From IMG/VR virus record IMGVR_UViG_3300036766_000678, positions 32,001 to 96,000 of that record: DNA of 64,000 bases; one strand, written 5' to 3'. A program made the position numbers and the translations under genes. This document shows positions 13,378-58,707 of the stretch, piece by piece (within the stretch, counting starts at the first letter, position 1; each line of letters starts with the position of its first letter). The stretch is from a virus. The notes under the pieces are model-generated. The model ran no database searches, was not told the origin of the DNA, and saw nothing but the letters and a program-made list of their open reading frames with translations.

Positions 13378-13530
13378 TCATTTAACCAATACCTGTTGTA
13401 GCTTTACAAATAGCTCTACAGCTTCTTTTCTTGTAATATGCAGCCTTGTACGTCCAAGAGCTAATAACAATCTCTTACGTTTACGATCTCTTGGTCTTGC
13501 TTCTTTCTTTAATGGGATTAGTTTAATCAT
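13378..13530 (-). CDS. basic hypothetical protein (50 aa)
   Basis: Hand-translated MIKLIPLKKEARPRDRKRK...; ATGA overlap with upstream ORF. Confidence 0.5.
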   Translation of the reverse strand: MIKLIPLKKEARPRDRKRKRLLLALGRTRLHITRKEAVELFVKLQQVLVK

Positions 13531-13906: not shown

Positions 13907-14593
13907 CTAATTGGCAGCCTTTTTATTTTTCATAGCAGAAGTTGCCTCATCAAGTGTGTTGAAAGTTCCTAAGTACCTATGGCAAATAGAAACTTGAAAT
14001 TTACCATTACTCTTTTTAGCAATTCCTACAGGCAATCCACTATTTTGACGTTTTATTTCATATCTATTAGGCAAATTAAGAATTTGTTGCTTTATATTTT
14101 CATCTACAATAGCTTTTCCACTTCGTATTCGTGCAAGAATAACACCTAAAAAGTGTGAAACTGGATCTTTGCTTACCTTACTGGGAGGAATTCCAGTTTT
14201 TTCATAAAAGGAAATAATTTCTAACGCATTTTTATTACTCTCGTGCTGTCTGAATGTTGGAACCTTTTTATATTGATTTGAAAAACTTTCATCATAACAA
14301 TCACCATGGATATTTGAAAATCTCCCCCAATATTGACTTAATCTTTTTTCATTTGAATTTAAACTAACTTGGGACGGTAAATAGCCATGATTTTTTATAA
14401 AAAGAGCAATCTCTTTTTGAATTTTAATAATTTTTTCATGCTGAAATTTAAAATTATATTTCTCACGTAACAAATTTAAAAATTTAGGATCATAACTAGG
14501 GTTCTCACTTCGTATATAATTATAAAATAATGCTGACAGATATTTTTCTTCAGGGTCACTAGAGTGTGATGCAGGAAACCTATACTTCTTCAT
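13907..14593 (-). CDS. helicase-associated (HA)-like repeat protein with C-terminal AP2-like domain
   Basis: About 60-aa repeats EIxxFxxxxGxxPSxxSxDxxExxL; C-terminal GIAKKSNGKFQVSI..YLGTFNTLDEA. Confidence 0.65.
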   Translation of the reverse strand: MKKYRFPASHSSDPEEKYLSALFYNYIRSENPSYDPKFLNLLREKYNFKFQHEKIIKIQKEIALFIKNHGYLPSQVSLNSNEKRLSQYWGRFSNIHGDCYDESFSNQYKKVPTFRQHESNKNALEIISFYEKTGIPPSKVSKDPVSHFLGVILARIRSGKAIVDENIKQQILNLPNRYEIKRQNSGLPVGIAKKSNGKFQVSICHRYLGTFNTLDEATSAMKNKKAAN

Positions 14594-14988
14594 ATTCCTA
14601 ATTCACTATATAAAGCATGAACACTTTCTTTTAAGAAAACACCAGATAGTCCAAAACCACATTCATATCTATATATGGAACTAATATCATACTCAATAGG
14701 ATCATTAGAATTCATATGGAGTCTTCGTCGTGTCTCACGTATAAAATTTAAAATCTTATTTGCATTACATTCGAAACGATTAATTCTCTCATTCCACGAT
14801 TCTATTTTCTCACCTTCTGGTTTAGGAAAGAATTTCTCGATAAGTTTTCTAAACTCTGGATCAAAACTTGAACTAGAAGGAGCCATATAAGAATGCATTC
14901 GTTGAGCATGATGTCTTTCTTCCAAATCTATGCTAACTGCACTAGGGCGTTTATACCTCTTCATAAGCATGCGCCTCGATCCATTCAA
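14590..14988 (-). CDS. HA-like repeat protein (likely start 14964, MKRYKRPS); apparent continuation of the helicase
   Basis: KRPSAVSIDLEER..SFDPEF is the second half of the repeat whose first helix ends the helicase ORF. Confidence 0.6.
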   Translation of the reverse strand: MNGSRRMLMKRYKRPSAVSIDLEERHHAQRMHSYMAPSSSSFDPEFRKLIEKFFPKPEGEKIESWNERINRFECNANKILNFIRETRRRLHMNSNDPIEYDISSIYRYECGFGLSGVFLKESVHALYSELGI

Positions 14989-16495
14989 TAATTTCTTTCT
15001 TATTTCCTTCTGGATCTTGATAGGAAGTACCCTCTAGAGCCTCTAGGATCTCATTAGGAGAGGCTTTATGGTATGTTTCGATGGGGCGATTACCAAACTG
15101 CTTTACATCGTCAAATACATCAAGCTGCATTGCCTTAAAGTAATCCATAGGATCTATAAACCGCACCACAGGAGAAGTTGGAACCTTCTTTTGTTTCTTA
15201 TGTTTTATCTTCGTAAGATCTGTCTTCGTAAAAATAATGTTTCTATTTCGAATACTACCAAGACCTTTATAATTAGTTAGACCTTCTGAAGTAAGAAGCC
15301 AAAACATAACCTGCATTATGATGTCTGTTTGATGTCTTCGGTCTGGAGTAGTCACCTTCAAAAAAAATTTAGTTTTACCACCTTCTGGACGCATAAGCCT
15401 ACCATACTTTTGTTTCTGGGCTGAAGGATTAAGACCAAGGCTTATATCAACACAATTATCTAGTCCTGGAAAGTCCCAAGCCAATGTAGCTCTATCTACT
15501 ACCACAAGGAAATTGTACTTATTATAATCTAGATCTTTTGGGTTACTAAACACATCCAAATTATTAGAAGTGTCATCATTATCTGAAGTACTAAGCAAAA
15601 CACTGCCTGGATAATGAAAATTAAACTCATCATAAAGATCTTGGGCATGAGTAATTCCATTAGCAAAGATAAGAGTCTTACCAATAGGAAGGAAGGGAAG
15701 TTTCGTCTTACCAAGGAAATTGCCCAAAGAAGGCCAATAACGAGTTTGAGCAAGACGTTGTAAAACTACTTCAACAATGCGCTTTGTCTCTTCTTTAGGA
15801 AGTTTAGCTTCTACACCTTTCAATGTTTCCCAAGTAGTTTCACTATAATCTGCTTTCGTAATGTCTTTATAGGCTTCTGCTACTTCTGTCGTAGGAAGTA
15901 CCGTATAAACTTCGCCCTCCTTACGTCCTTCACGAATCAAATCTATGGCTGAGAAACCAAATATCTTCACACCTTTCTTATCTATAAATTTATCAGGGGT
16001 GGCCGTAAGATAAAGCTGTTTAAGTCCTTTACGTCCAATCTGCTTTGTGATAGATCGAACCATCTTCCCTTCTGTTTGATGGTGTGATTCATCTATTAAA
16101 AGAAACTGATATTTAATTAGAGGTAATTTACGAATAGTGGAAGGAATTCCAAGAACAACTCTTGCATTAGGATTATAGTCTGATTTATTCTCTACCACAC
16201 AGACATCATTTTCTACAAAGGAAAGATTTTTTTCTTCAAGTATAGAAAATAACCTTCTTTTAAATTGATTACGAATGTCTTTACGATTGTGGGCTAAGAT
16301 AAGAACTTTCCAAATAGGATTTAATTGTAATAGTTCTGCTATAATATTGATAGCCATATTCGTTTTGCCACTTCCCACTTCAGAAGCAAGCAAGACAATT
16401 TTATTTTTAGTCTGTAAAAGTTCTGTCACACAAGACGTTTCAAGCGTTACTTGGTAGGGTCTGACTTTATATTTCTTTTTAGTTAAGGTTTTCAT
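14951..16495 (-). CDS. SF2 (DExH, restriction Res-like) helicase
   Basis: RPYQ, Walker A SEVGSGKT, IDESHH, LTATP, KTLIFA, motif VI QKYGRLMR. Confidence 0.88.
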   Translation of the reverse strand: MKTLTKKKYKVRPYQVTLETSCVTELLQTKNKIVLLASEVGSGKTNMAINIIAELLQLNPIWKVLILAHNRKDIRNQFKRRLFSILEEKNLSFVENDVCVVENKSDYNPNARVVLGIPSTIRKLPLIKYQFLLIDESHHQTEGKMVRSITKQIGRKGLKQLYLTATPDKFIDKKGVKIFGFSAIDLIREGRKEGEVYTVLPTTEVAEAYKDITKADYSETTWETLKGVEAKLPKEETKRIVEVVLQRLAQTRYWPSLGNFLGKTKLPFLPIGKTLIFANGITHAQDLYDEFNFHYPGSVLLSTSDNDDTSNNLDVFSNPKDLDYNKYNFLVVVDRATLAWDFPGLDNCVDISLGLNPSAQKQKYGRLMRPEGGKTKFFLKVTTPDRRHQTDIIMQVMFWLLTSEGLTNYKGLGSIRNRNIIFTKTDLTKIKHKKQKKVPTSPVVRFIDPMDYFKAMQLDVFDDVKQFGNRPIETYHKASPNEILEALEGTSYQDPEGNKKEIIEWIEAHAYEEV

Positions 16496-57783: not shown

Positions 57784-58707
57784 TTAAAAATTACCTCTTT
57801 TTATTTTGTAAGGAATTTTTTTAATTTTCTTAGCCAATATAGGATTGTACCCTTTAGAATTTGGACTTATATAATAAGCCAATTTCATTTTTAACTGTCG
57901 TTCTTTTTTATTATTAGATTTTCTAGTGGGACGATACCCATGTTTATTAATAAACTTAAAAATTTCATTTTCTACTTTTTTTAATTTATATACAGTGAAA
58001 GTTGGAAATCTATTTATCTTTTTCTCAAAATTTAGATCATATGCAGAACCATTATGGTTTAAATATACGCTTAGGGCATTACCCAATATAGATTCATATT
58101 TATTATCTGTTTGATATACTGGCCTATATCCATACTTTTTACAAAATTCTAATATTTCGTTCTTTCTATCTTCTGCTCCTTTAATAGCTTTATCAGGATA
58201 TTTAGAAATTATTTTTGCAAATTCTGGGTCATACGAAAAAGTTGTTTTTCCCATATACATACGTAAAGCATTACCTAAAAATCTTTCTCTTTTAGTTCCA
58301 GTTCCACTAGAGGGCCTATACCCAAATTTTTTAATAAATTTTAAAATATTCTTTTTATTTTTAATTGTTTGTGGCTCTGGACCAAATTTTATTCCAAAAT
58401 TACTTTCTGCAATCTTACGAATATTGTACCCAAATTTATCATCATAACTTTGCAGCTTATCCATCCAATATTGCTCTCTTTTTTCTAATTTCTTTTTAGT
58501 TGGATTCTTTATAATTTCAAGTATTTTAAATACAAAGTTATCTTCTCCATATTTATTCCAAGCATTTTGAAGATACGGATTTTCATGTTTATTAAAAAAA
58601 AGATCATGGAAATGCATAGTATTTCTATGAGATAAATCTCCAGAACTACCTACATATCCTTTCCCATTAATCTTATTTACTATCCTGTAAATACCTGATT
58701 GTTTCAT
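57784..58707 (-). CDS. GIY-YIG endonuclease with three HA-like repeats
   Basis: SGIYRI..GYVGSS..LQNAWNKYG..GYN; 3x FxxKxGYRP..E..L..Y..YD. Confidence 0.88.
   Translation of the reverse strand: MKQSGIYRIVNKINGKGYVGSSGDLSHRNTMHFHDLFFNKHENPYLQNAWNKYGEDNFVFKILEIIKNPTKKKLEKREQYWMDKLQSYDDKFGYNIRKIAESNFGIKFGPEPQTIKNKKNILKFIKKFGYRPSSGTGTKRERFLGNALRMYMGKTTFSYDPEFAKIISKYPDKAIKGAEDRKNEILEFCKKYGYRPVYQTDNKYESILGNALSVYLNHNGSAYDLNFEKKINRFPTFTVYKLKKVENEIFKFINKHGYRPTRKSNNKKERQLKMKLAYYISPNSKGYNPILAKKIKKIPYKIKRGNF

Follow-up and report, generated by a model that had tools for sequence, protein, structure and literature searches.

Organization of the helicase locus

Three adjoining open reading frames (ORFs) were analyzed in the DNA of an uncultured virus (IMG/VR record IMGVR_UViG_3300036766_000678, 180,416 bp, 94% complete). 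The stretch under study, referred to here as the window, comprises bases 32001-96000 of that record (64,000 nucleotides), and the locus lies on the minus strand in a replication module. ORF1 encodes a superfamily 2 (SF2) helicase, ORF2 a small protein of one truncated and one complete three-helix repeat, and ORF3 a protein of such repeats with an AP2-like end (Table 1). ORF1 and ORF3 share a reading frame, and ORF2 occupies the +1 frame. This layout had been described in an earlier reading of the letters alone (the sequence-only reading), and it was confirmed here together with the positions of two 13-mers at the gene junctions (14953..14965 and 14582..14594), their identity at 12 of 13 positions, and the frame arithmetic, by which removal of 13 nucleotides at junction 1 (ORF1/ORF2) or of 13+1 nucleotides at junction 2 (ORF2/ORF3) joins the frames.

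Models of the ATPase and of the C-terminal helicase domain were both significant in ORF1, which identifies it as an SF2 helicase: ResIII (PF04851, 4.5e-19), DEAD (PF00270, 4.6e-08), and Helicase_C (PF00271, 1.8e-05) all scored above the curated cut-offs, and PHROG 16 (DNA helicase) was matched at 2.6e-28. The orthologues identified were P0001 (91%), P0002 (66%), and P0003 (65%). AlphaFold2 (AF2) models of ORF2 and ORF3 both reached a mean predicted local distance difference test score (pLDDT) of 92.3, with a predicted template modeling score (pTM) of 0.63 and five helices for ORF2 and a pTM of 0.78 for ORF3. DNA and protein searches of the GenBank phage collection found nothing similar to the locus, and word-index searches with ORF2 and with the last 45 helicase residues returned the queries themselves and P0001 only.

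Table 1. Features of the helicase locus and of the repeat-bearing endonuclease gene (window coordinates)
Feature	Coordinates	Strand	Basis
ORF1, SF2 helicase, 514 aa (ResIII / DEAD / Helicase_C core)	14951..16495	-	Pfam, PHROG
Donor helix, helicase residues 498-511, Trp-containing helix 1 (NKxxIIxW[IL]ExH type)	14963..15004	-	Profile positions 2-15
Junction 1, dual-coding overlap	14951..14970	-	Sequence reading
ORF2, 124 aa (126 aa from CATG start at 14970)	14590..14964	-	
ORF2, N-truncated repeat (helices 2-3)	14833..14961	-	Profile positions 12-54
ORF2, complete repeat, helices at residues 57-78, 89-102, and 105-122	14599..14796	-	Profile positions 2-27 and AF2
Junction 2, ATGA stop/start overlap, -1 frame	14590..14593	-	
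ORF3, 228 aa, repeats and AP2-like end	13907..14593	-	
ORF3, N-truncated repeat	14465..14590	-	Profile positions 12-53
ORF3, complete repeats (n=2)	14255..14443 and 14066..14254	-	Profile positions 3-54 and 2-52
ORF3, AP2-like strand-strand-helix end	13910..14065	-	
GIY-YIG homing endonuclease, free-standing, three intact repeats	57784..58707	-	PF01541, 1.1e-08

A three-helix repeat is split at junction 1

For a 54-position repeat profile, the GIY-YIG endonuclease contributed its three intact repeats, and ORF3 and P0003 contributed those of their internal repeats that were clear; the profile was then iterated over 119 collected proteins. In the AF2 models each repeat consists of three helices. 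The profile identified the C-terminal end of the helicase as an orphan helix 1 of the repeat, termed here the donor helix, and placed the starts of both ORF2 and ORF3 at position 12. A profile search of the 180-kb genome found no repeat copies beyond the helicase, ORF2, ORF3, and the GIY-YIG gene, and the donor helix is the sole such helix in that genome.

The repeat is split at junction 1, where the helicase carries helix 1 and the first residues of ORF2 fall on profile position 12 of that same repeat. The helicase protein contains neither helix 2 nor helix 3 of the repeat to which its donor helix belongs, and positions 12-15 are present on both sides. By profile position, the two fragments together correspond to one fold unit, for which the parse into helices 1, 2, and 3 is weak. 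When a structural aligner was applied to the ORF3 model, compact units of helices 1, 2, and 3 were delimited at residues 49-112 and 112-189, and the N-terminal 48 residues of ORF3 are therefore one helix short; these matches were weak and generic (Z of 5 or less).

The two coding regions overlap at this junction, the start of ORF2 lying 14-20 nucleotides before the helicase stop. Frame 0 reads H-A-Y-E-E-V-stop, and the +1 frame contains two ATGs, at 14970..14968 (inside CATG) and 14964..14962, followed by K-R-Y-K-R-P-S. A Shine-Dalgarno-like GAGG is located 9 nucleotides before the second ATG, and the same was observed in four of six contigs (the window's own contig, L012, L009, and L008). With a start near the upstream stop and a ribosome-binding site inside the upstream gene, the pair has, as far as sequence can tell, the features of translationally coupled overlapping genes.

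Junction 2 is a plain gene boundary

At junction 2, a complete repeat is followed by a truncated repeat that has no helix 1 upstream of it. The last helix of ORF2 (residues 105-122), which comes directly after helix 2 of the second repeat, was assigned to helix 3 by both the profile and the AF2 model. Similarly, homologues of the ORF2 tail LYxxLGI end the ORF2 analogues in contigs L011 and L009, where they come after the YD motif, a mark of helix 3. A unit joining the ORF2 C-terminus to ORF3 as one repeat was considered and dropped on these grounds. The same junction geometry was also found in L011, after the LGI tail, and in L008 and L013, after an AP2 domain. Stop-start overlaps of the ATGA and TGATG types are a mark of translational coupling in bacterial and phage operons, and junction 2 is exactly such an overlap, with an AGGA 4 nucleotides upstream of the start.

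The sequence-only reading had the repeat broken at both junctions, giving coupled polypeptides that may reassemble. At junction 1 the repeat is indeed cut, and possible reassembly of the coupled products is a fair reading there; at junction 2 the upstream side is a complete repeat. The locus very probably makes three coupled polypeptides.

The 13-nucleotide similarity is a conserved N-terminus

The two 13-mers had been explained as near-identical stop/start inserts at the same repeat position. As a string the 13-mer is unremarkable, with 0.46 matches expected by chance and two or more matches in 9 of 100 shuffles. A HMMER search with ORF3 gave 114 relatives, and at least 14 stand-alone proteins share this starting point in the repeat and an N-terminus resembling MKKY[RK]FPS. 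The 13 nucleotides encode this family-wide MK[KR]Y start, which aligns to repeat positions 11-14, and the meaning of the 13-mer comes from homology, as the conserved N-terminus of many relatives, and not from its statistics. In the helicase frame, T ATG AAG ARG TAT A reads Y-E-E-V-stop; the conserved last residues of the helicase are thus an out-of-frame image of the start of the next gene. For annotation this means that 'YEEV-stop' and 'MKKY' are one DNA stretch in two frames, with no insertion.

The same repeat subtype occurs unsplit in P0009 and P0011, where a Trp-containing helix 1 is followed by a loop of 5-7 residues and then KYRFPS. Additionally, contig L011 contains fused and split copies that differ by 2 nucleotides in the loop between helices 1 and 2. 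Because the 13 nucleotides are in frame in the unsplit relatives, the "extra" nucleotides represent the naturally longer loop of this subtype plus a change of frame.

These observations bear on the proposed history, in which one 13-nucleotide stop/start insertion split the repeat and a tandem duplication then produced two identical cuts. The shared start position of the two downstream ORFs and the resemblance of their 13-mers agree with such a history, and tandem MKKY-type ORFs are common among the relatives. However, the 13 nucleotides correspond to native positions of the repeat, helix 3 and not helix 1 precedes junction 2, and the two truncated repeats (stumps) are only about 20% identical. 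Lineages whose helicases are about 30% identical also had both junction types before they diverged, as seen in L011. The model of a single split followed by duplication is largely refuted and very unlikely.

Wider scans with these patterns were also performed. The degenerate pattern MKKY[RK]FP matched at least 120 stretches in a scan of JGI metagenomes, with no true relative found by profile search among the matches listed. IMG/VR scans with helicase peptides and three junction DNA patterns gave nothing, or one chance match (L010).

The cut after helix 1 is conserved among phage contigs

The window's own contig (WIN) was compared with contigs from ENA, JGI, and Logan assemblies. In this small census, the cut after helix 1 was found in WIN, L004, L012, L009 (twice), L011, L013, L008, L134, L135, and L136, with the cut in L008 standing after an AP2 domain. 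At least five junction geometries were distinguished. The 14/20-nucleotide overlap was observed in WIN, L012, L009 (first cut), L011, L008, and L134, and an overlap of 17 nucleotides in L013. An ATGA after helix 1 was present in L009 (second cut) and L004, a TGATG in L136, and a stop separated from the ATG by one nucleotide in L135. An ATG was present at all 11 junctions. The whole three-gene layout, composed of a helicase, an LGI-ending protein, and an MKKY-type protein with AP2, was found again in L011 and in an 80.9-kb ENA contig.

The sequence around the cut, referred to here as the cassette, is conserved beyond the helicase itself. Between WIN and L012, the helicase cores are 28% identical, whereas the 21-residue cassette is about 70% identical and the donor helix about 70% conserved. 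The part of helix 1 outside the overlap (DPEGNKxxIIxW) is also far better conserved than the helicase core. At the DNA level, the cassettes of WIN, L012, L009, L011, and L008 are 58-72% identical and their differences include synonymous ones, which points to long-term purifying selection and not to recent transfer. The cassette of L013 is one codon shorter, giving 37-43 of 90 in an ungapped comparison. Gene fission with coupled translation is common; a cut that is kept at one loop of a small repeat, persisting down to 28% helicase identity and in five geometries with fused forms surviving in relatives, is not.

What follows the cut is more variable. The closer relatives of the window helicase (65-66% identical) are fused to other tails, suggesting that the tail region is exchangeable while the cassette persists. 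Among them is P0003, a protein of 675 amino acids that unites the helicase, two repeats, and AP2, and is thus the unsplit gene that the sequence-only reading had suggested looking for. L013 shares a near-identical helicase end with the window, after which a different module follows. This difference and the position of the L008 cassette after AP2 both fit an exchange of modules.

A longer helicase (over 687 amino acids) was found in L135:1-1999, with an N-terminal Mrr-like nuclease domain (a weak match), the donor helix end, and then an acceptor-type ORF, that is, one starting with a stump. Thus, more than one helicase architecture carries the cassette.

Recoding and damage as explanations of the junctions

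Two further explanations would deny the junctions a role as gene boundaries. The first is recoding, in which a hop or a frameshift (+1 at junction 1 and -1 at junction 2) would yield one long helicase-repeat-AP2 protein. In the window, L012, L009, and L008, junction 1 has two TATs, the first 10 nucleotides before the second, which would allow such a hop, and the loop produced by +1 read-through would be about as long as that of the fused relatives. The comparison did not bear this out: the Tyr pair is missing in L011 (TAC and TTT) and in L013, and the take-off codon is followed by GAA and not by a stop, unlike in a programmed bypass of the T4 gene 60 type. Across six aligned contigs neither junction has a slippery heptamer or a shift-prone codon, and the frame relation varies among relatives (+1, -1, or adjacent), in contrast to a programmed ribosomal frameshift. 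Although the geometries number five and the frame relations two, no junction lacks an in-frame ATG, and junction 2 is a canonical ATGA. Recoding, rightly ranked as the lesser alternative by the sequence-only reading, is highly improbable, and the TAT-to-TAT hop that it allowed at junction 1 falls with the codon pair.

The second explanation is damage or artefact, either a decaying pseudogene tail or assembly errors at the junctions. That some metagenomic breaks are errors is illustrated by L134 (probably a long-read assembly), with its additional A-run frameshift and odd breaks. However, there is no homopolymer at either junction of the window, the ORFs are intact with confident folds, and the same junctions recur in 10 further contigs from different projects. 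Both junctions are thus real and conserved in independent assemblies, contrary to the possibility of artefact raised by the sequence-only reading, and this explanation is extremely improbable. With the cut present in at least ten independent phage contigs, the sequences argue for a kept design that is unlikely to be damage.

L134 is a 182,960-bp ENA contig that is apparently a sibling genome. At L134:100-165, an A-run differs by one base immediately ahead of a donor-helix cassette that is otherwise intact; the helicase frame consequently ends early, with DPEAKKERNY-stop, and the tail further downstream is broken at non-canonical places. These breaks probably reflect long-read homopolymer error, which calls for caution in any census.

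Coupled proteins and a proposed docking of helix 1

Taken as a whole, the reading toward which we lean, by a modest preference, is that of separate coupled proteins, a selected cassette at junction 1, and docking of helix 1. The products would be the SF2 helicase of the replication module, a small adaptor of two repeats (ORF2), and a DNA-binding protein of repeats plus AP2 (ORF3). Junction 1 would be an old, selected cassette in the long loop between helices 1 and 2 of the Trp-containing repeat subtype. A His codon and the next G provide the +1-frame ATG, and the Tyr-Lys or Tyr-Arg codons of the downstream gene provide the stop in the helicase frame, so that an indel of 1-2 nucleotides is enough to switch between the fused and the split form. 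The orphan helix 1 may then dock on the N-terminal stump of helices 2 and 3 of ORF2, or of ORF3, which would complete the three-helix unit and link the helicase to DNA-binding modules that can be exchanged. The cassette DNA may also act as a joint for module swapping by recombination.

Docking of the helicase helix 1 onto the two-helix stump of the next protein is a tentative proposal, which we rate somewhat below an even chance. It is consistent with the adjacency of donor and acceptor at 7 of 11 junctions, and with L008, where the donor is appended after the AP2 domain when an acceptor ORF comes next. The conservation of the non-overlapping part of helix 1 also agrees with it, given that the helicase has no other part of the repeat. 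The confident folds of ORF2 and ORF3 (pLDDT 92) support the reading more generally. In its most extended form, a helix on the helicase, or on some AP2 proteins, would snap onto the stump of the next product like a plug into a socket, giving a non-covalent chain of modules with the junction DNA as the recombination joint; this form is possible but rather doubtful. If helix donation occurs, the helicase would have a natural tether based on fragment complementation, and the DNA-targeting part of this replication enzyme would thereby be modular.

Several observations weigh against docking. A helix 1 donor is missing upstream of four of 11 MKKY-type ORFs, of which two come after a helix 3 tail and two after an AP2 end, and a truncated repeat can hence exist without a neighboring donor. 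The genome contains one donor and two acceptors. AF2 gives the stumps of helices 2 and 3 a pLDDT of 95-97 without helix 1, so that they may simply be N-terminal caps. Additionally, the conservation of the cassette is partly forced by dual coding, and the three-helix matches behind the domain parse are weak and generic, none exceeding a Z of 5.

The same donorless acceptors and self-sufficient stumps would be expected under permissive fission, in which the loop between helices 1 and 2 is merely a place where the repeat array tolerates cutting. The terminal helix of the helicase would then be harmless or otherwise used, ORF2 and ORF3 would be independent DNA-binding accessory proteins whose first repeat serves as an N-terminal cap, and the cassette would be conserved through dual coding and translational coupling. 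In L136, P0082 is a stand-alone acceptor-type gene behind an unrelated ORF, and more distant family members also start near this loop, as permissive fission would predict. This explanation does not account for the non-overlapping part of the donor helix being far better conserved than the helicase core, nor for the donor adjoining an acceptor in most cases, even after an AP2 domain in L008. We consider fission without reassembly unlikely.

Comparison with known systems

Like other coupled overlapping genes, the helicase and ORF2 share a stop-start region, and junction 1 resembles a longer (14-20 nucleotides) version of such overlaps with a Shine-Dalgarno-like GAGG. It differs in that the overlap lies inside a protein repeat, that the dual-coding cassette is kept down to 28% helicase identity, and that the cut recurs at the same loop in five geometries.

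Split genes are well known in T4-like phages, for example the topoisomerase genes 39/60 with a 50-nucleotide bypass, and the DNA polymerase and nrd genes split by homing-endonuclease insertions. The likeness is that an essential replication-type phage enzyme is made as several polypeptides that are single genes in relatives. In contrast, the present junctions contain no inserted endonuclease gene, intron, intein, or conserved take-off/landing pair, and the cut falls in a small helical repeat of an accessory tail and not in the catalytic core.

Homeologous recombination is presented as a source of phage mosaicism in PMC2327257. Short conserved stretches at module borders could serve exchange, and the near-identical helicase ends of L013 and the window, with different modules after them, would fit such a putative exchange at the present cassette.

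Relationships of the repeat and the AP2-like end

The repeat had been called HA-like in the sequence-only reading. A three-helix repeat was indeed found, and the name is an analogy only: hmmscan with the Pfam HA model (PF03457) gave no match for ORF2, ORF3, P0009, P0019, P0008, or P0017 at E-values up to 5, and none for the GIY-YIG protein at E-values up to 0.1. Like HA, the present repeats are short (about 55-65 residues), all-helical units of three helices, found as tandem arrays behind SF2 helicase cores, with a presumed role in nucleic acid binding. Unlike HA, they do not match the HA profile and they also serve GIY-YIG homing endonucleases. A Foldseek search against the PDB gave no match at an E-value of 0.001 or better. 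No named fold is claimed for the repeat, since the wide structural search gave generic three-helix bundles only (Z of 5 or less). The case defines a repeat family that is unmodelled by Pfam and common to phage helicases and GIY-YIG homing endonucleases, and literature searches found no description of this repeat or of the junction cassette.

The free-standing endonuclease was identified as a GIY-YIG homing endonuclease by PF01541 and by PHROG 7168 and 314, with the three repeats as an extension. The intact repeats attributed to it beforehand were recovered as three full profile matches with independent E-values of 1e-17 to 1e-19. The gene stands among structural-looking genes, with the three-helix repeat as its DNA-binding part. 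P0022, P0023, P0029, and P0042 have similar N-termini, suggesting that the repeat is a common endonuclease module.

The AP2 assignment of the ORF3 end is indirect, made by way of PF00847-bearing relatives and HNH-endonuclease PHROGs. A direct comparison with PF00847 (AP2) gave no Pfam match at E-values up to 1. Residues 161-226 of ORF3 match P0065, P0075, and P0090, which carry PF00847 at 1e-10 to 1e-13, and residues 181-227 match the AP2 parts of PHROG HNH endonucleases (PHROG 99, 953, and 13470). In the AF2 model this end forms two strands and a helix with a lower pLDDT of 68-82. The putative AP2 module thus resembles those of phage HNH homing endonucleases in family matches and in its strand-strand-helix arrangement, and it differs from them in that ORF3 has no nuclease domain and no direct Pfam AP2 match and is attached to a helicase system.

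Genomic surroundings

The neighbors of the locus in the replication module encode a DnaB-type helicase, an ATP-dependent ligase, and a primase zinc-ribbon protein. Directly downstream of the helicase tail genes, at window positions 13378-13530 on the minus strand, is an ORF of 50 amino acids that is basic, with a KRKR stretch and then a helix. It is kept at the same place in L005 (7094-7246) and L012 (3498-3650) and looks like a syntenic small DNA- or RNA-binding protein.

Among the relatives, a major facilitator superfamily (MFS) / BT1 gene of the folate-biopterin transporter family was found directly upstream of the helicase (L004:1387-2325 and L006:3801-4982), with NAPRTase, phosphoribosyltransferase, and pyrophosphatase genes also in the vicinity in L006. 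A transporter gene is an unusual cargo for a phage. Additionally, a 13-mer search with two mismatches brought up two nearby copies of a segment of about 45 nucleotides (…CCGAACTTCATAGAAATATGAAGA…) at genome positions 113617 and 113892, outside the window and on the minus strand, which resemble the repeated ends of paralogous small genes.

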